The notes under the pieces are model-generated. The model was not told the DNA's origin. It searched no databases and saw nothing but the letters and a program-made list of their open reading frames with translations. Positions 1-13,075 of a stretch of DNA of 15,582 nt are shown piece after piece. Source of the stretch: a virus (taxonomy: Duplodnaviria; Heunggongvirae; Uroviricota; Caudoviricetes); IMG/VR virus record IMGVR_UViG_3300029888_000066; one strand, given 5' to 3'. Every line of letters begins with the position of its first letter. Position 1 is the first letter of the stretch. A program made the translations under genes and the position numbers.

Positions 1-366
1 GTCGAACTTAACCATGACAGCGTTCTGTACTTCAGGGGCCAGCTTGTCAAAAGTGACGTTCATCGGATCGGATTCAGTCTCAACCGGGACAAAAGAAGCA
101 GACTCCTCATCCCAGCGGTTTTCCTGCATATATTCAGCATCCCATGAATCGAGGGCAGGGCGGGGTATGCCAGGTTTATCCTCGCAGACAATAAATTTAT
201 AAGCGCAGTCCTGAGCAGCCGGATAATGTTCCAGGAACTGCCAGTGAAATTTTGCTCGAGCACGGCGTTCGTCGCCAGCTTCAATGGCTGTGGCTACAGC
301 CACAGCGCCTTCTTCCCTTGTTGCCAGTTCGTCAGGAATAGCGGCGCAAATAAAGACTTTACTCAT
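1..366 (-). CDS. Prophage protein, 5' part only (N-terminal 122 codons; gene runs past the window start); sits in the position after ydfD
   Basis: Reverse-strand ATG at 366-364 with GAGGT Shine-Dalgarno about 9 nt upstream; frame open to the window edge; translation begins MSKVFICAAIPDELATREEG. Function not recognised. Confidence 0.6.
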   Translation of the reverse strand, partial: MSKVFICAAIPDELATREEGAVAVATAIEAGDERRARAKFHWQFLEHYPAAQDCAYKFIVCEDKPGIPRPALDSWDAEYMQENRWDEESASFVPVETESDPMNVTFDKLAPEVQNAVMVKFD

Positions 367-459
367 TTTGTTTTAACCTCATGACAGATTTAAGGATGAA
401 CAAATCCCTGCCATTGCTGGCATATAAGAATGAAACCGGATATTTATTACGGAACTGTT

Positions 460-651
460 TTAAAGACCTGCCGGGATTTCGATATTATCCTGGTGAATAA
501 CTTTATCGACCGGGTAACAGTTACCGGGAATTTTCTGTTCGGTTGCTGCAGTCATACACTCCTGCATTGTCCTGTGAACACTGACTGCAATATCAACTGG
601 CACTCCGGAAACAAGAAAAACTGTCAGAACAAGCGCAAATGCTGAATTCAT
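460..651 (-). CDS. ydfD: YdfD-like small prophage protein, 63 aa
   Basis: Start ATG overlaps the dicB stop in an ATGA arrangement, as recalled for dicB-ydfD; translation MNSAFALVLTVFLVSGVPVD...; is the in-frame tail of ORF 460..705. Confidence 0.6.
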   Translation of the reverse strand: MNSAFALVLTVFLVSGVPVDIAVSVHRTMQECMTAATEQKIPGNCYPVDKVIHQDNIEIPAGL

Positions 652-836
652 TGTGCACATCCTTTTGGCATCAGACGTAAACGAGCCAGCATTGAAACAA
701 TGCATATTTTATTTAATAGCTCCCGTTCTTGTTTTCTCTTGTTAATGGCATCTTCAGTAAATACAGGGTTACTGATAGTGACACCAATTTCAAAACAACC
801 TTCAGACGTATTAACGTTTGGTAATAACGTTTTCAT
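648..836 (-). CDS. dicB: Cell-division inhibitor DicB, 62 aa
   Basis: Last 62 codons of ORF 648..941 translate to MKTLLPNVNTSEGCFEIGVTISNPVFTEDAINKRKQERELLNKICIVSMLARLRLMPKGCAQ, which I recognise as DicB; GAGGA Shine-Dalgarno 7 nt upstream of this ATG. Confidence 0.85.
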   Translation of the reverse strand: MKTLLPNVNTSEGCFEIGVTISNPVFTEDAINKRKQERELLNKICIVSMLARLRLMPKGCAQ

Positions 837-1005
837 TATCGCGTCCTCAACAATGAATTTTGTGATGCAGTGCCTGGTGCCTCCAGGTGACGTTAACCAG
901 TTAACAATTAACGTCGGATACAGAGAATCCACCCATAACACTGTTTTTGGTTTTAACTGTTCCGCGTGCGCTTAGCCGTATTCACCGCATCACAAAATTC
1001 ACTTT

Positions 1006-1063
1006 AAAAAGGGCGGCAGAGCAGTCACGGAGTAAAACTGATACCGCCAAACGTCACCAGAAA
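1006..1063 (-). ncRNA. dicF: DicF small RNA (ftsZ-targeting sRNA of the dicB operon)
   Basis: Reverse complement reads TTTCTGGTGACGTTTGGCGGTATCAGTTTTACTCCGTGACTGCTCTGCCGCCCTTTTT, matching the DicF sequence as I recall it, ending in a GC stem plus U-run; lies between the ydfB/C-position ORF and dicB on the operon strand. Ends approximate. Confidence 0.75.
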
Positions 1064-1322
1064 ATTGATAACAGAGGGCGTTGCAGCGGGGTTGTCACTT
1101 AAGCGTATGGTCAACCTGACAACCCGGTGTCCTCAACGGGGAAGGAATAACCCCGCCATACTTACCGCCGCGCCATTTTGCGGGTTGCCACAACCGGAAG
1201 CGCACGGTCGAATTAAATTTAACGACACCGTACAGTGAGACGAACTTCGCCGTGCGCTTTCGTGTTGTGTGCCTGCTTTTAACCACGTCAGGCGAGGTGG
1301 TATCCTTAAAATCACCACAGTT

Positions 1323-1898
1323 TTAAGGATTCATTAAGCAATGTCGCAACCACCAATAAATCCGCTTAAGAACATGAAAATTGATTACTGGTATAAAGCT
1401 CTTACAGTTGTTGGCGCTGCGTTGTTTGTCTTTAATGGAACGTCTTTTTTTGACAGATATCCCGTTGTTCCATTGGGTTTTTTGTCCTCCGGCATCTTTT
1501 TTATTGGTTTGGGGGAGTGGATTAATCACCCTCTCATAGTGAGATTTATTGGTCCTGGAGTTTGGACTCGTGGATATAATCGTTCTTCGTGCGCACTCGG
1601 TATCATCTTCGACATACTTGGTTGTTTCCTGATTGTTACAGGAGTCGTCAAGTTCTTCTGATGTAAAACCGCAAATGGGGCACGTAACGGGAATTTTGAA
1701 AAGCGTTTCTCCGGGTTCCAGAACAAAATTTTCTGCGGTCTGATTTTGCTTCTCATATTTGTGCTCCGCGTCATTGTGAGAGCACATTCTTATTCTGAGT
1801 GCCTGTTTAAACTCACTGAAGCTGAGAGCTTCTTCGCCTTCGGCAAGGCCTTCGAAGTATTCTTCGTAAGCCTTTTCCATGATTGTGTCGAAATCCAT
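1323..1898 (-). CDS. ORF in the ydfB/ydfC position of the dicB operon; 5' third looks coding, 3' extent uncertain
   Basis: ATG at 1898-1896 lies 1 nt after the ydfA stop with AGGTGAG upstream; begins MDFDTIMEKAYEEYFEGLAEGEEAL; frame stays open for 191 codons but the distal half is low-complexity and overlaps a plus-strand ORF. Confidence 0.4.
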   Translation of the reverse strand: MDFDTIMEKAYEEYFEGLAEGEEALSFSEFKQALRIRMCSHNDAEHKYEKQNQTAENFVLEPGETLFKIPVTCPICGFTSEELDDSCNNQETTKYVEDDTECARRTIISTSPNSRTNKSHYERVINPLPQTNKKDAGGQKTQWNNGISVKKRRSIKDKQRSANNCKSFIPVINFHVLKRIYWWLRHCLMNP

Positions 1899-1899
1899 A

Positions 1900-2055
1900 T
1901 CACTCACCTGAGTTTCTTTCCAGCCAGCGACGGGCACCATTTTCGGTTTTAAACGTTTTGCTTTTGGTATACGTCATCGCGGTGAACGTGCCGTCCTGGT
2001 TTGGAAACACGCCGTACACCAGAGATTCGTTGTTGCCAAGATCGATAGTATCCAT
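1900..2055 (-). CDS. ydfA: YdfA-like small protein, 51 aa
   Basis: Internal start of ORF 1900..2133; GAGGT 5 nt upstream; translation MDTIDLGNNESLVYGVFPNQDGTFTAMTYTKSKTFKTENGARRWLERNSGE; first gene after dicA on the same strand. Confidence 0.6.
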   Translation of the reverse strand: MDTIDLGNNESLVYGVFPNQDGTFTAMTYTKSKTFKTENGARRWLERNSGE

Positions 2056-2135
2056 GCTGACCTCATTTCCCCTTAACGCTGGGGTAGCGGAACTGTTTGC
2101 TGAGAACACCGTGCGGTGTGTTGATGCAAACAAGA

Positions 2136-2185
2136 TTAGCCATGACTAACATATCGGTCAAGTGATTTTGTATGCTATAGCTAAC
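2136..2185. promoter_or_regulatory. Candidate DicA operator and promoter region for the ydfA-dicF-dicB operon
   Basis: Near-palindrome TTAGCCATGACTAA at 2136-2149 and TAGCTAAC at about 2177-2185 share the TTAG..CTAA half-sites seen between dicA and dicC; located between the dicA stop and ydfA start. Confidence 0.4.
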
Positions 2186-2221
2186 ATAATTGATGTGGTA
2201 AAAGATAACTCATTGATGATG

Positions 2222-2629
2222 TTATCTTTTATTTGTCCGCTGACGGGCTTTTAGTAATTCTTCAAAGAGTTTATTGAAGTTTTTTACTCGAGCTCGCATT
2301 TCGGCGAGCTGGGTATTCTGTTCTGATTCTGGCAGTGCATTAAACAGCTCAAGGAGCTCTAGTTCTTTGGGGGATAAGGCAACTGGCTTCTCAACAGGTG
2401 GTGTTGGTTGCTTGTCTTCATCGCCAAATAGAATCCATGTTGGTGAGCATTGCAATACTTTGCTGAGGGCAAAAAGGTTCTTCCCTGTAGGTTCACTATC
2501 ACCCCGTTCCCATTGTGATACAGACACATGGGAGATTTTCAGGGCTTTAGCAAGAGACCTTTGGGTGTGTTTGAGGTTTTTCCGACGATACCTGATGCGT
2601 TCGCCGATAGTTAAATTTTTTGTTTCCAT
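2222..2629 (-). CDS. dicA: Repressor DicA (XRE-family HTH, cI-like), 135 aa
   Basis: ORF translation METKNLTIGERIRYRRKNLKHTQRSLAKALKISHVSVSQWERGD..., recognised as DicA; divergent from dicC. Confidence 0.9.
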   Translation of the reverse strand: METKNLTIGERIRYRRKNLKHTQRSLAKALKISHVSVSQWERGDSEPTGKNLFALSKVLQCSPTWILFGDEDKQPTPPVEKPVALSPKELELLELFNALPESEQNTQLAEMRARVKNFNKLFEELLKARQRTNKR

Positions 2630-2712: not shown

Positions 2713-2943
2713 ATGCTTAAAACTGACGCTCTTTTGTATTTCGGTTCAAAAACAAAACTTGCACAAGCAGCAGGTATTCGTTTGGCTTCGCTTTATAGCT
2801 GGAAAGGGGATTTAGTTCCCGAAGGTCGCGCGATGCGTCTACAGGAGGCATCTGGCGGGGAGCTTCAGTATGATCCCAAAGTTTATGATGAATATCGTAA
2901 GACGAAGCGGGCGGGGCGGTTGAACAATGAAAATCACTCCTGA
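2713..2943 (+). CDS. dicC: Cro-like regulator DicC, 76 aa
   Basis: ORF translation MLKTDALLYFGSKTKLAQAAGIRLASLYSWKGDLVPEGRAMRLQEASGGELQYDPKVYDEYRKTKRAGRLNNENHS, recognised as DicC. Confidence 0.85.
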   Translation: MLKTDALLYFGSKTKLAQAAGIRLASLYSWKGDLVPEGRAMRLQEASGGELQYDPKVYDEYRKTKRAGRLNNENHS

Positions 2944-3448
2944 ACAGGCTCGTGAGGCTCTGGATGCCTGGATATGTCGACCAGGAATGACACAGGAGCA
3001 GGCGACGATATTAATCACTGAAGCATTCTGGGCTTTGAAAGAGCGCCCGAACATCGATGTTCAGCGTGTCACATATGAAGGTGGCGCGATTGATCAGCGA
3101 GCGCTTGGCGTTAATCGAGTGAAGATATTTGAACGCTGGAAGGCTATCGACACCAGGGATAAGCGTGAAAAGTTCACGGCGCTAGTGCCTGCAATTATGG
3201 AGGCTATCCGGATTAATGATTTCAGGTTGTATCGTAAAATTACTGACGGAAAAAGCATCACGTGCATGATCGCCGGGTTAAACAAAGAATATGGCGATGT
3301 GGTGGAGTCCGGACTGCTTTTTGCTGATCCTGCCGTAGTGGATCGTGAAACTGACGAACTTATAGAAAAAGCAATTGCTTTCAAACTTGCGTATCGACAG
3401 CAATACCAACAAAAAGCTGGATGGAATTATGAGCCTTCTTTTTGCTGA
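2927..3448 (+). CDS. Hypothetical 173-aa protein in the position after cro (possible CII-like or YdaT-like regulator)
   Basis: ATG inside the last codons of dicC (coupled arrangement); product begins MKITPEQAREALDAWICRPG; functional call is by position only. Confidence 0.55.
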   Translation: MKITPEQAREALDAWICRPGMTQEQATILITEAFWALKERPNIDVQRVTYEGGAIDQRALGVNRVKIFERWKAIDTRDKREKFTALVPAIMEAIRINDFRLYRKITDGKSITCMIAGLNKEYGDVVESGLLFADPAVVDRETDELIEKAIAFKLAYRQQYQQKAGWNYEPSFC

Positions 3449-4394
3449 ACGCCCACTGGTTATAAACACGCAGCTGGCAATGAAAATTGGCTTAAACGAA
3501 GCCATTGTTTTGCAACAACTGCACTACTGGTTGAGAGATACCAACTCCGGCATGGAATGTGATGGTGTTCGCTGGATTTATAACACAACGGAACAATGGC
3601 TGGAACAGTTCCCATTCTGGTCAGAGTCAACGTTAAAGCGCGCGTTTGCAAGTCTGAAAACGCTGGGGCTTTTGCGTTGTGAAAAGCTCAATAAATCAAA
3701 GCGCGATATGACCAATTTCTACACGATCAACTATGGGAGCGAGCTTTTAGATGGTGGCAAATTGAGCGAATCCATCGGTTCAAAATGCGCCGCTCCATCA
3801 GGTCAAAATGACACGATGGAAGAGGTCAAAATGAAACGCTCCATTGGTTCAAAACGACCCAATGTCATCGGGTCAAAATGGCCTGATGATCTTACAGAGA
3901 ATACAACAGAGATTACTACAGAGAATAAAAACACTTTTCGTCCGGAAGCTTCGCAACCGGACCCGCAGACGACTGAACAGGATTTTTTAACCCGGAACTC
4001 CGACGCGGTTGTGTTTAGTGCGAAAAAACGCCAGTGGGGTAGCAGGGAGGATTTGGCGTGTGCGCAGTGGATCTGGGGGCGGATCGTGGGTCTCTACGAA
4101 CAGGCAGCCAGTGATGATGGCGAGATCATGCGACCAAAAGAGCCTAACTGGACTGCCTGGGCCAATGACGTGCGCACAATGCGGATGCTGGATGGCAGAA
4201 GCCACAGACAAATTTGCGAAATGTTTGGTCGGGTTCAGCGAGATCCATTCTGGGTAAAAAACATCATGAGCCCGTCAAAGCTCCGCGAAAAATGGGACGA
4301 ACTGGTCATCCGCCTGGGACGTTCACCTGTACAGCGTTGTGTTAATCATATTTCTGAACCGGATACAGAAATTCCGCCTGGTTTCAGAGGATAA
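3429..4394 (+). CDS. Replication initiator, lambda O-like (N-terminal winged-helix-like region, iterons inside the gene)
   Basis: Frame of ORF 3375..4394; preferred start ATG 3429 (MSLLFAERPLVINTQLAMKIGLNEAIV), with TTG 3375 as an alternative; five direct repeats inside the coding sequence as in lambda O/ori. Confidence 0.6.
   Translation: MSLLFAERPLVINTQLAMKIGLNEAIVLQQLHYWLRDTNSGMECDGVRWIYNTTEQWLEQFPFWSESTLKRAFASLKTLGLLRCEKLNKSKRDMTNFYTINYGSELLDGGKLSESIGSKCAAPSGQNDTMEEVKMKRSIGSKRPNVIGSKWPDDLTENTTEITTENKNTFRPEASQPDPQTTEQDFLTRNSDAVVFSAKKRQWGSREDLACAQWIWGRIVGLYEQAASDDGEIMRPKEPNWTAWANDVRTMRMLDGRSHRQICEMFGRVQRDPFWVKNIMSPSKLREKWDELVIRLGRSPVQRCVNHISEPDTEIPPGFRG
3771..3880 (+). repeat. Five iterons (consensus about TCCATCGGTTCAAAATG) at 23-24 bp spacing: candidate phage replication origin
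   Basis: Copies start at 3771, 3794, 3817, 3840 and 3864; they encode the repeated SIGSK/IGSK peptide; followed at 3893-3928 by three TACAGAGAATA-like repeats in an AT-richer stretch. Confidence 0.7.
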
Positions 4395-4434
4395 ATGTTG
4401 ATTTCAGGTCATGAGGTAATTTTAAGGGGGACTT

Positions 4435-4854
4435 GTGGCAAAAGTTTTTACACAAGAAGAGCGGGAAAAAATTAAATGGCAGGTGGTGGAACTCGTGCGC
4501 CAGAGCGGCCGTGAGACGTTACGGCAACTGGAAGCTAAAACAGGTGCGACTAGATATCTGATGAGCGTTCTTGCCAGAGAGCTGGTAGCCAGTGGCGATG
4601 TATACAACTCCGGCTACGGGTTATTCCCCTCTGAACAGGCGCGTAAGGACTGGCAAAACGCCCGCAAAAAACTCTCGAGGGCAAAGGTGAAGAAACCTGC
4701 TGTGGTTGATCCGGACCTTATCTGGTCATCACCTGACGGAGAAATACGTCGCTACGACAGTCGTCTAAACATAATCTGTCGCGAGTGCCGGAAGGCAAGG
4801 AGAAGCAGGCTATTGTTAACACCAAGCTGTAATGTCCCCTTTGAACCATTCTAA
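4435..4854 (+). CDS. Hypothetical 139-aa protein after the O-like gene; 3' end may be altered by the adjacent IS
   Basis: GTG start with AAGGGGG Shine-Dalgarno 6 nt upstream; MAKVFTQEEREKIKWQVVELVRQSGRETLRQLEAKTGATRYL; stop lies only 33 bp before the transposase gene. Confidence 0.5.
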   Translation: MAKVFTQEEREKIKWQVVELVRQSGRETLRQLEAKTGATRYLMSVLARELVASGDVYNSGYGLFPSEQARKDWQNARKKLSRAKVKKPAVVDPDLIWSSPDGEIRRYDSRLNIICRECRKARRSRLLLTPSCNVPFEPF

Positions 4855-6470
4855 AATGTCCCCAGACAATTCTCTGGGGGATTTTTCATGATCAAAGAGA
4901 CTGTTACGATGAGTCATAAGGAACTCCACCGACTTCAGATTATTCAGGAGTCAATTAATCGACATATTACTCAGGAACAAGCTGCGGCACGCATTGGCAT
5001 TTCTATTCGGCAGGTTAAACGTCTGGTGCAACGGTATAGAAATGAAGGGCCTTCTGGTCTGGTTTCCCACCGACGTGGAAAGCGTCCTAATAATTCCTTT
5101 TCTACTGAATTCAGAGCAACAGTAATTTCACTCCTCAAAGGCCGTTACGCTGATTTTGGACCTACGTTTGCGTGCGAAAAATTGCGCGAGATACACGGTT
5201 TATCTTTATCCGTTGAAACTCTCAGAAAGTGGATGATAGAAGAGGGGTTATGGCGTGAACGCCGTCGTAAAATTGCCCGTATATATCAACGCCGCATGCG
5301 ACGACCATCTTACGGTGAACTGATCCAGATTGATGGCTCACCTCATGACTGGTTTGAAAATCGAGGCCCCAGATGTACACTGATCGTTTTCATTGATGAT
5401 GCCACCAGTGCGTTGATGGCGTTGCGTTTTGTGCCTGCTGAAACAACCCGGGCTTACATGGAAACCCTCCGGGGTTACCTTAATGATCATGGCGTACCGC
5501 TCGCTCTCTACTCTGATAGACACAGTATATTCAGGGTAAATAACCCAGAGCGGGAAGGTGAGCTGACCCAGTTCACTCGTGCGATAAAGACACTGGGCAT
5601 CGAGCCAATCCATGCCAACAGCCCGCAGGCAAAAGGGCGGGTAGAGCGCGCCAATCAGACACTACAGGACAGGCTGGTCAAAGAAATGCGGCTTCAGAAT
5701 ATCAGTGATATTGAAACAGCAAATGCATGGTTGCCGACCTTTATTGAAGCCTATAACAAGCGGTTCGCTACGTCGCCTCGTACTACTGATAATGCTCATC
5801 TTGATGTGCACCATTCTGAAGAGGAACTGGGTTATATCTTCAGCCTACAGGCGAAGCGCGTTCTGTCTAAAAATCTCACTTTCCAGTACAAAAGCAGTGC
5901 GTTTCAGGTACGCAGTGAGGGCCGGGGATATCGACTTAGGCATTCGGTTGTTACTGTATGTGAGAACTTTGACGGTGAAATTAACGTTCTGTATGACGGG
6001 AAAGCGCTGGGCTGGGAAAAGTATGTTGATGGCCCGGAGCCTATACCACTGGATGATGAAAAGAGTGTCCATGAACGAGTGGATAATGCCCGTATTGATT
6101 TACGCTCAAAATACTATGTTAAATCTAAAGCTGACCATCCCTGGCTTACGCGCCGAACGCAAAGTCATCAGCAAGTTAAGCCCCCGAAGTTACCTAAAAA
6201 GAAGCCTGATCCCGATAAAATAGATTGAAACCAAGATCGATTCGGTTGAGTGCATATCCATTCATAGGGTAGATTCTTAAGTCGCGTTTCTGGTGTTCAT
6301 TTTCGGGTGGTTTGTTACTTGTTTTACCGGGGATATGCCAGAAACGCGCTGAGTCAGTCTGGGCGGTGCGCGTAATGAGGCGTTATGGTAAATAGCCTAT
6401 GCTAATGTCCGCTAAGAGCAAGAAGCGGAAGTTGGCAGTTTTGTGGACTGTCCCCACAAAAGTGACTACA
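4830..6470 (+). mobile_element. Insertion sequence carrying the DDE transposase; boundaries not resolved
   Basis: Transposase gene plus about 250 bp of non-coding 3' sequence; no clean terminal inverted repeats found by eye, so the ends are approximate. Confidence 0.35.
4888..6228 (+). CDS. DDE (rve-type) transposase, 446 aa, IS481/ISNCY-like with N-terminal HTH
   Basis: MIKETVTMSHKELHRLQIIQESINRHITQEQAAARIGISIRQVKRL (HTH), then an integrase-core pattern with candidate catalytic D (IQIDGSPHDW), D (YSDRHSIF) and E (ERANQTLQDRL); GGGGGA Shine-Dalgarno upstream. Confidence 0.85.
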   Translation: MIKETVTMSHKELHRLQIIQESINRHITQEQAAARIGISIRQVKRLVQRYRNEGPSGLVSHRRGKRPNNSFSTEFRATVISLLKGRYADFGPTFACEKLREIHGLSLSVETLRKWMIEEGLWRERRRKIARIYQRRMRRPSYGELIQIDGSPHDWFENRGPRCTLIVFIDDATSALMALRFVPAETTRAYMETLRGYLNDHGVPLALYSDRHSIFRVNNPEREGELTQFTRAIKTLGIEPIHANSPQAKGRVERANQTLQDRLVKEMRLQNISDIETANAWLPTFIEAYNKRFATSPRTTDNAHLDVHHSEEELGYIFSLQAKRVLSKNLTFQYKSSAFQVRSEGRGYRLRHSVVTVCENFDGEINVLYDGKALGWEKYVDGPEPIPLDDEKSVHERVDNARIDLRSKYYVKSKADHPWLTRRTQSHQQVKPPKLPKKKPDPDKID

Positions 6471-11547: not shown

Positions 11548-11847
11548 AAAAATTCCTTAATACTGATAACTTGGCGCACTATACACACGTTCCTGAAGAA
11601 AGCTATAGTTTTTTGATGGGGTTGAAGATGGCTGGATGTCTAAAATAAACATTGCTTCATATGTTCAACTATGCGTTAATGATTGCGTCGGTTTGAAGAA
11701 CAGACGATATACGAAGTAGTTTACTAAAGCAGTTCTCATTTCAGGTGTTATTCACTTATTCCTTCTTTGAGTCTCTCCAATTAAGTACGAAGTCGTTTCT
11801 GTTATGCAAACCATTTATGCCGAAAGGCTCAAGTTAAGGAATGTAGA

Positions 11848-12063
11848 ATGTCAAATAAAATGACTGGTTTAGTAAAATGGTTTAACGCTGATAAAGGTTT
11901 CGGCTTTATTTCTCCTGTTGATGGTAGTAAAGATGTGTTTGTGCATTTTTCTGCGATTCAGAATGATAATTATCGAACCTTATTTGAAGGTCAAAAGGTT
12001 ACCTTCTCTATAGAGAGTGGTGCTAAAGGTCCTGCAGCAGCAAATGTCATCATTACTGATTAA
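11848..12063 (+). CDS. cspB: Cold-shock protein CspB, 71 aa
   Basis: Translation [71 protein letters not shown]; long 5' leader (about 300 nt) typical of csp genes. Confidence 0.9.
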
Positions 12064-12334
12064 AATTCATCGCTCGTCTGTATACGATAACGAAGAAGGC
12101 TGATGCCTGAGTAGAGATACGGACAGAGTAGTGAATATTGGATCTCTTTAATAAAAAGTAAGGAGGTCCAATACATGAAACAATGGCTAGCATATTTGGC
12201 AAAATCTTAATCAGGAAAAGTATGCTAACCATTGTGGTGAAGTGCAGGTTTGCTGCATGAATAGTTTTACAGCAGAAGCTAACTGCTGGCATGGCAAAAC
12301 AAAGTGCGTAAGTGGATGACTCCCACAAAAAGCA

Positions 12335-13075
12335 CCACAATCTCAAACCCGCTCAGGCGGGTTTTTTATTGTGCACAGAAAACCCCCAGCTAGGCTGGGG
12401 GTTCCGGAAAGCTTTCAGCTTTAAGCCAGTTATTAAAACCCCTTTTGATTTGTTAAAACACCTTGCGGTCTGGCAACTGCAAGTGTCAAACAAGAAATCA
12501 AAAGGGGGTCCCAATGGGGAACGAAAAGAGCTTAGCGCACACCCGATGGAACTGTAAATATCACATAGTATTTGCGCCAAAATACCGAAGACAGGTGTTC
12601 TACAGAGAGAAGCGTAGAGCAATAGGCTGTATTTTGAGAAAGCTGTGTGAGTGGAAAAGTGTACGGATTCTGGAAGCTGAATGCTGTGCAGATCATATCC
12701 ATATGCTTGTGGAGATCCCGCCCAAAATGAGCGTATCAGGCTTTATGGGATATCTGAAAGGGAAAAGCAGTCTGATGCCTTACGAGCAGTTTGGTGATTT
12801 GAAATTCAAATACAGGAACAGGGAGTTCTGGTGCAGAGGGTATTACGTCGATACGGTGGGTAAGAACACGGCGAAGATACAGGATTACATAAAGCACCAG
12901 CTTGAAGAGGATAAAATGGGAGAGCAGTTATCGATTCCCTATCCGGGCAGCCCGTTTACGGGCCGTAAGTAACGAAGTTGGATGCAAATGTCAGATCGTG
13001 TGCGCCTGTTAGGGCGCGGCTGGTAAGAGAGCCTTACAGGCGCATTTGAAAAACCTCCGGCTATGCCGGAGGATA
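12335..13075 (+). mobile_element. IS200 (IS200/IS605 family), about 0.7 kb; ends approximate within about 40 bp
   Basis: tnpA preceded by the characteristic left-end structures: terminator-like hairpin 12345-12367, perfect 8-bp hairpin 12383-12401, and a long-range stem (CCCCTTTTGATTT 12439-12451 pairing with AAATCAAAAGGGG 12496-12508) that sequesters the tnpA Shine-Dalgarno. Confidence 0.7.
12514..12972 (+). CDS. tnpA: IS200 transposase TnpA (HUH/Y1 type), 152 aa
   Basis: MGNEKSLAHTRWNCKYHIVFAPKYRRQVFYREKRRAIGCILRKLCEWKSVRILEAECCADHIHMLVEIPPKMSVSGFMGYLKG..., recognised as IS200 TnpA (HxH motif in CADHIHML); track ORF 12463 is an upstream TTG extension. Confidence 0.9.
   Translation: MGNEKSLAHTRWNCKYHIVFAPKYRRQVFYREKRRAIGCILRKLCEWKSVRILEAECCADHIHMLVEIPPKMSVSGFMGYLKGKSSLMPYEQFGDLKFKYRNREFWCRGYYVDTVGKNTAKIQDYIKHQLEEDKMGEQLSIPYPGSPFTGRK

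Follow-up and report, generated by a model that had tools for sequence, protein, structure and literature searches.

A probably dual-coding antisense gene module in the known dicBF operon of a Qin-type prophage

We analyzed a 15,582-nucleotide (nt) stretch of a Caudoviricetes virus genome, IMG/VR record IMGVR_UViG_3300029888_000066 (hereafter the window), of which positions 1 to 2760 are a Qin-type immunity and early-left region. The open reading frame (ORF) listing together with Rfam, Pfam and phrog matches confirmed the minus-strand gene order that a preliminary description had read from the sequence, namely dicA, ydfA, a long ORF, DicF, dicB, ydfD and a further gene (Table 1). The whole had been taken for a DicA-repressed operon of division arrest and lysis, and this identification was correct, except that dicA is a separately transcribed repressor gene and lies outside the operon. 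The dicBF prophage operon itself is already known, and the window adds nothing on DicF, DicB or YdfD. Between ydfA and DicF, the window holds a cassette carrying gene A on the plus strand and, antisense to it, a long frame, B. We regard this cassette as an undescribed, probably dual-coding module in the known operon, with putative functions for A and B. No description of the cassette, of the gene A family or of the A/B overlap was found in the literature, and gene A went unseen in the preliminary description.

Table 1. Features of the immunity and early-left region of the window (aa, amino acids; sRNA, small RNA; AF2, AlphaFold2)
Feature	Coordinates	Strand	Evidence or remark
YdfE-type exonuclease, first 122 codons	1..366	-	phrog_2082 'exonuclease' positions 1-122/823, E 7e-88; continues past window end
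ydfD, 63 aa, DUF1482, annotated lysis protein	460..651	-	PF07358, E 2e-25
dicB, 62 aa, cell-division inhibitor	648..836	-	PF05358, E 2e-40; protein identical to K-12
DicF sRNA	1011..1062	-	Rfam RF00039, 76.7 bits (gathering score 48), model 1-52/52
Conserved non-coding block between B stop and A start	1262..1335		Near-invariant across divergent modules
Cassette replacing ydfB 3′ end, ydfC and downstream spacer	1265..1800		K-12 pairwise alignment; ~0.55 kb
ydfB′::B frame, 191 aa from ydfB ATG	1323..1898	-	Mechanical ORF 1940..1323, 205 aa
Gene A, 106-aa small membrane protein, uncharacterized family	1341..1661	+	Homologues, motifs, AF2, substitution pattern
B type I module, I-P-x-x-C-P-I-C-G-F	1665..1694	-	Just outside gene A
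ydfA, 51 aa, DUF1391	1900..2055	-	PF07151, E 2e-28; protein identical to K-12
Promoter-like TTGACC-17 nt-TAATCT, upstream of ydfA at dicBp position	2133..2161	-	Read from sequence
dicA repressor, 135 aa, HTH_3	2222..2629	-	PF01381, E 1e-16
dicC, 76 aa, P22 Cro-like, divergent from dicA	2713..2943	+	PF14549, E 2e-11; protein identical to K-12

The alignment to K-12 that had been proposed as a check revealed a nucleotide identity of about 99% to the Qin prophage of MG1655, yet one that is broken from window ~1800 to ~1265/1228, so the region is not identical to K-12 throughout. The right-hand boundary of the inserted cassette is fuzzy and lies between 1228 and 1265. The window matches K-12 ydfB (42 aa) over codons 1 to 34, after which its frame runs for 157 more codons; the ydfA-ydfB-ydfC set upstream of DicF is incomplete, with ydfA kept, ydfB reduced to these 34 codons and ydfC absent. 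Since ydfB is truncated and ydfC is absent, the locus is a variant and not the K-12 arrangement. A variant had indeed been proposed before, on two grounds that both fail. The dicF-dicB spacing was said to be longer than in K-12, but the distance from the DicF 3′ end to the dicB ATG is 174 nt in both. The ydfB/C region was said to be one continuous frame, and it is one open frame, but it contains no YdfC sequence, the 34 ydfB codons being fused to a foreign ORF. A merged protein at the YdfB/YdfC position together with a lengthened dicF-dicB spacer is thus very improbable and is refuted by the alignment. The frame does continue from the ydfB ATG, and dicA and DicF lie 119 nt farther apart than in K-12, but this gain is owing entirely to the replaced segment, that is, to a cassette bearing gene A on the other strand, and some other prophages hold both the cassette and ydfC. 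In these prophages ydfC comes after the cassette, at some loci in frame with B, which indicated that modular shuffling has produced both the K-12 arrangement and that of the window.

Gene A is a genuine gene under purifying selection, as judged from length-matched homologues with invariant motifs, a confident three-helix model and a bias of substitutions toward codon position 3. Sixty homologues of 100 to 111 aa, with identities as low as 34%, were found in Yersinia, Herminiimonas, Reinekea and metagenomes; the motifs D-Y-W-Y-K-A and G-x-G-E-W-x-N-H-P are invariant among them, and a profile search with gene A retrieved 486 representative clusters in a large library. The AF2 model, with a mean predicted local distance difference test (pLDDT) score of 82.9, contains a small hairpin besides three long hydrophobic helices. 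Differences between lineages fall mainly at codon position 3 (e.g., 11/7/34), and the ratio of nonsynonymous to synonymous differences (pN/pS) is ~0.1 to 0.2. It follows that much of the continuous frame of the preliminary description is the antisense strand of gene A. The gene is ancestral and is also present alone in many non-phage genomes, where no conserved partner gene was found beside it, except in one syntenic Desulfobulbales group. Gene A had no Pfam, PHROG, NCBIfam, PADLOC or PDB match; family searches with A and B returned only the self-made phrog_35040 and a trivial rubredoxin-knuckle match (E ~0.03 to 0.07), and fold searches with the gene A model gave only generic helical-bundle matches. 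Further occurrences were recorded: a non-phage homologue (locus L028) that adjoins an AbiJ-type abortive-infection gene and an IS110 transposase (4898-5809 and 3739-4872); homologues at three separate chromosomal sites of an Arcobacter genome, each 38% identical to the query over the same match length; and a degraded gene A in Shigella flexneri CP182557 (3001-3282), with several in-frame stops and deletions.

Existing annotation would favor the opposite strand. Gene callers chose B over A in 1798 versus 141 member sequences, and the annotations of phages mEp390 and HannyBb list B only. That B is the only gene and the plus-strand ORF A is spurious is nevertheless hardly credible, given the invariant motifs, the confident fold and the substitution pattern of A, and given A homologues in non-phage genomes whose antisense frame is full of stops. 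In mEp390 (NC_019721, 3456-3911), gp39 is annotated on the B strand with a note citing similarity to Bcep176 gp33; this similarity in fact belongs to the A strand, as BLASTP gave an E value of 2e-17 for A and of 0.53 for gp39. Elsewhere B appears as a 191-aa hypothetical protein in some older RefSeq annotations and as a 205-aa one in HannyBb, and the current Prokaryotic Genome Annotation Pipeline (PGAP) reports "ydfB, incomplete" and leaves the rest of the cassette empty, calling neither A nor B. The gene pair is thus currently missed, truncated (as a "ydfB pseudogene") or put on the wrong strand.

The B frame covers the whole of gene A in the in-register antisense frame, and its core of 154 aa starts at an internal ATG at 1787. 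B ends 16 to 36 nt past the A start codon, in the window as well as in most other lineages examined. The enterobacterial prophage copies of A comprise the window lineage, relatives at 84 to 88%, one lineage at 58% and a Yersinia lineage at 51%. In all of them, the in-register antisense frame is stop-free across the gene and open for 145 to 221 codons. A stop in this frame needs a TTA, CTA or TCA codon in A, and zero of these occurred among the 13 to 17 Leu plus TCN-Ser codons in five clade-1 lineages. The clade-1 A genes have a GC content of 0.40 to 0.45 and do use A-ending codons in other codon boxes; with the codon usage of the flanking genes, the chance of zero antisense stops was 0.001 to 0.013 per lineage. 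Non-phage A homologues of similar GC content contain 3 to 17 TTA/CTA/TCA codons. The frame is equally open in a second clade of phages that has diverged far from the first; it consists of mEp390, a Pantoea rodasii prophage and 14 IMG/VR clusters, and its A proteins are only ~39 to 50% identical to that of the window.

Outside the overlap, B reaches 30 to 100 codons upstream and carries there one of two conserved modules. The type I module has the general form ..P-x-x-x-C-P-x-C-G-(C/F) and is kept in 12 divergent lineages with C-P-x-C-G invariant, and the type II module reads L..PGSV........VTL.GW. In both, residues are kept while third codon positions vary, and the module pN/pS was 0.3 to 0.6 in the B frame versus ~1 in two control frames. 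A canonical four-Cys zinc ribbon was considered for B and rejected, since the second knuckle is not conserved; the tail that follows the N-terminal module is predicted to be disordered. The B core measures 151 to 155 aa in clade 1, mEp390 and the Pantoea prophage, and a Shine-Dalgarno-like sequence precedes the B start in several lineages. Overall, a signal of purifying selection was observed in A, whereas in B it was confined to the non-overlapping N-terminal module, and in the overlap it consisted of stop avoidance only.

We weighed these data against the view that only A is real, an ordinary reverse-oriented moron, and that B is a non-functional ORF left open by chance of codon usage. In-register antisense frames are stop-poor generally: 0.8 to 10% of 107-codon windows in flanking phage genes were open, the upper figure coming from the genes flanking locus L009. 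However, 17 of 18 phage lineages versus 3 of 17 non-phage homologues of GC content ≤0.53 have a single antisense ORF that spans 85% or more of A (Fisher p = 4e-6), in a comparison whose lineages are not phylogenetically independent and whose non-phage class is unverified locus by locus. Chance openness likewise does not account for the conserved N-terminal modules with pN/pS below 1 in the B frame only, for the consistent core length where it was measured, or for the constant orientation of B with the early operon, and we judge this view quite unlikely.

Several observations do count against B as a functional gene, and the evidence that A and B code is comparative. Within the overlap, the amino acids of B are unconstrained (pN ≥ pS), B evolves about twice as fast as A, and its AF2 model is essentially disordered (pLDDT 43.8). 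The frame is also broken in individual copies, by a TGA replacing the Gly of the CPxCG motif at locus L014 (6328-6330), by a nonsense single-nucleotide polymorphism at window 1499 in 1 of 22 IMG/VR haplotypes, and in Yersinia L003 (~600-625, compared with L005) by a one-base frameshift in a run of adenines near the start; A is intact in both of the broken-B copies in which it was checked, the L003 copy not being among them. The 79 near-identical IMG/VR copies contain too few changes for a selection test. The unconstrained overlap, the disordered model and the broken copies, together with the absence of a B call in current PGAP annotation, agree with chance openness of B, and the first two of them also with a different view, in which B is translated for the sake of translation itself: the polypeptide would have no function, and ribosomes trailing RNA polymerase across the antisense strand of A would guard the early transcript from Rho termination or from pairing with the A mRNA. 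An overlap that evolves freely apart from stop avoidance, a disordered protein and a stop placed just beyond the A start codon speak for such a role. On the other hand, the existence of two different conserved modules at the N-terminus of B points to a protein function, the Rac prophage tolerates, in the same slot, ~0.5 kb of sieB antisense that is not translated, and K-12 has ~570 nt of untranslated RNA between ydfC and dicB (PMC5069750). Translation for its own sake therefore appears to us rather unlikely. We consider it probable that B is translated and kept by selection. The explanation we favor overall, and hold to be likely, is a known operon that has received a mobile module of two genes on opposite strands, with selection keeping B open in the phage-borne copies.

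The cassette is polymorphic in its presence among otherwise similar phages, as a moron would be. At a coverage of at least 80%, 795 of the 5426 complete E. coli genomes contain it; the whole 2.7 kb was found in 933 (best identity 99.9%) and the K-12 ydfC segment in 2989, K-12 itself being without the cassette. The gene pair is carried by roughly 15% of the complete E. coli genomes, among them the reference strain ATCC 25922, and by two or more isolated phages. Escherichia phage HannyBb (PP925841.1) contains the ydfA-B/A-DicF-dicB-ydfD-exonuclease block at 99% identity with a different repressor/cro pair; it shares window 1-2126 and 2815-4794, with a mosaic break at 2127-2814. A paper of 2016 reported DicB and DicF to be without matches in phage genome databases (PMC5069750), and the variation of upstream genes of the operon among strains received a passing mention there. 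Record IMGVR_UViG_2778261534_000008, likewise 15,582 nt long, shares window 1-2126 at 99% identity, with the module at other coordinates and a different immunity region.

Two slots accommodate the module, both beside the immunity region. The first, occupied in the window and in Yersinia, Rac-like, Pantoea and other prophages, lies just downstream of the repressor gene in a pL-like operon, with A convergent with the repressor; here the cassette was found behind at least five different repressor types, the early genes differ (KilR, RdgC, DicB), and the module sometimes stands behind a HigBA or ParE module. In the second, seen in mEp390 and a number of IMG/VR phages, the module stands between cro and cII of a pR-like operon. 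In both slots, B always shares the orientation of the early lytic operon, and A opposes it.

Between the B stop and the A start lies a conserved non-coding block, present only where the module sits downstream of the repressor. It was compared in the window and in L003, L009, L010, L014, L146, L158, L175 and L185, and its core, TTGTGTGCCTG..CCAC.TCAGGC..GGTGGTAT, is invariant across lineages whose A proteins share only 39 to 58% identity; the block is more conserved than the coding sequence. A hairpin at 1302-1330 (minimum free energy -10.9 kcal/mol, z = -4.2) is maintained between clades by AU-to-GC switches at four stem pairs. Upstream of A, an extended -10-like TGGTATCCT occurs at 1298-1306, in a stretch where the promoter scan itself gave no match, and comparison with Rfam returned no known RNA family at E ≤1. 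The block may serve A as a promoter or 5′ leader, or it may act as an RNA element within the early-left transcript.

The remaining parts of the operon follow K-12 closely. The sequence is identical from the dicA stop to ydfA and in the dicA-dicC spacer, and the promoter-like element at the dicBp position is flanked by TGTTAG..CTAA repeats in a stretch that is also identical. DicF, for which the suggested check against the Rfam model gave a full-length match well above the gathering score, has the K-12 sequence and occupies 1063..1011 by the 53-nt K-12 annotation coordinates. DicA differs from K-12 by a single amino-acid change (D105N) and YdfD by two (V6A and E17V); the ydfD start overlaps the dicB stop, and the exonuclease that follows is annotated at full length (823 aa) at the equivalent site in near-identical genomes and in HannyBb. 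As a side observation, the DicF terminator and 60 nt downstream (window ~950-1016) are 95% identical to the kilS sRNA region of the K-12 Rac prophage (~3350-3420), which indicated that the two prophages share that part of the early-left leader.

Overexpression of YdfD leads to lysis. In K-12, DicA represses the promoter upstream of ydfA, dicBp (PMC6832061), DicF is processed from a polycistronic RNA and pairs with the ftsZ, xylR and pykA mRNAs (PMC5069750), and DicB with MinC blocks division as well as ManYZ-dependent phage entry (PMC6832061). Since the parts in the window are identical or nearly identical to those of K-12, this mechanism should hold here too, so that derepression would give one transcript for YdfA, DicF, DicB (directed, jointly with MinC, at the Z ring and at ManYZ) and YdfD.

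Three RNA features were detected on the plus strand in the distal prophage: a cspA-type thermoregulator leader (Rfam, 158.8 bits; 11687-12079), the Hfq-binding sRNA STnc490 (Rfam, 146.1 bits; 12381-12504) and a tRNA-Arg(TCT) (ARAGORN; 14978-15054).

How the module might work is suggested by analogy with sieB, rexAB and bstA. In the lysogenic state, with the operon repressed, A would be made from its own promoter as a lysogeny-expressed membrane protein. Upon derepression, transcription and translation of B would run head-on through A and its upstream block, shutting A off and carrying RNA polymerase onward to DicF and dicB. From its genomic position, gene A is tentatively a candidate exclusion or defense protein, a possibility that we rate below even. 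A further step, which we consider unlikely, would make A and B one lysogeny/lysis toggle encoded on both strands: A, as a lysogen-expressed membrane effector (e.g., of exclusion or abortive infection), would harm the lytic growth of its own phage, and B, expressed as part of the early operon, would silence it by head-on transcription and translation, possibly also neutralizing A as a protein. Against such roles, gene A matched no known exclusion or defense family, consensus scans found neither a promoter nor a terminator for it, and no intrinsic terminator was found at its 3′ end.

If both strands code, the module would be a rare antisense overlap backed by comparison of many lineages rather than by one ribosome profiling (Ribo-seq) data set. 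If the toggle were true, the prophage would encode its self-immunity antisense to a defense gene; the pair would then rank with the strongest comparative examples of antisense genes that overlap completely, and the module would define a new class in phages. Stops can be introduced into B by changes that leave the A protein unaltered, which would make for a clean experiment. The module is found at immediate-early positions on either side of the immunity region and may bear on how lysogeny functions are switched off at induction; a convergent unit upstream of DicF and dicB could also alter the leakiness or inducibility of the toxic operon in natural isolates relative to K-12.

Compared with the dicBF operon of K-12 Qin, the locus has the same order, promoter region, DicF, DicB, YdfA, DicC and 174-nt spacer; it differs in the A/B cassette, which replaces the ydfB 3′ end and ydfC, and in the downstream exonuclease, which is not truncated by IS2 in near-identical genomes. 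The closest parallel in layout is the Rac prophage, in which racR-ydaG-ydaF-sieB(+)-kilS-kilR likewise presents a repressor, a DUF1391 gene, a reverse-oriented membrane-protein gene, an sRNA and a division inhibitor. Gene A, with its AF2 helices, is likewise a reverse-oriented membrane-protein gene in an early-left operon near the repressor, and in some Rac-like prophages it occupies the sieB slot upstream of kilR. In contrast, gene A has no sequence or profile similarity to SieB (no PF14163 match, Pfam E ≤0.1), and homology to SieB was rejected, as hhalign against Rac SieB gave a probability of 0.2%. The sieB antisense frame contains 7 stops and thus no B-like ORF; a shared slot alone was therefore rejected as the source of an open antisense frame, and the idea that this slot generally requires one found no support.

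The region next to the repressor is a mosaic hotspot for lysogeny-expressed defense genes such as rexAB and bstA, RexB being a membrane protein (PMC8585504). Like rexAB of lambda and bstA of BTP1, the module uses the repressor-adjacent slot, which here also holds, for example, HigBA and ParE modules. Those genes, however, have the same orientation as the repressor gene, whose promoter they are thought to share, whereas A is convergent with it or lies between cro and cII, and gene A has no known defense phenotype or homology.

Finally, the pair resembles ano and asa of enterohemorrhagic E. coli (EHEC) and olg1 and olg2 of Pseudomonas, each a long ORF antisense to an established gene in the in-register frame (PMC5960689, PMC6294744, PMC8850804). 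The evidence for those genes comes mainly from Ribo-seq in one species, while that for A and B is comparative and spans many phage lineages. B differs from them further in being longer than its partner and covering all of it, in having its own non-overlapping conserved module, and in its fixed orientation with respect to the operon.

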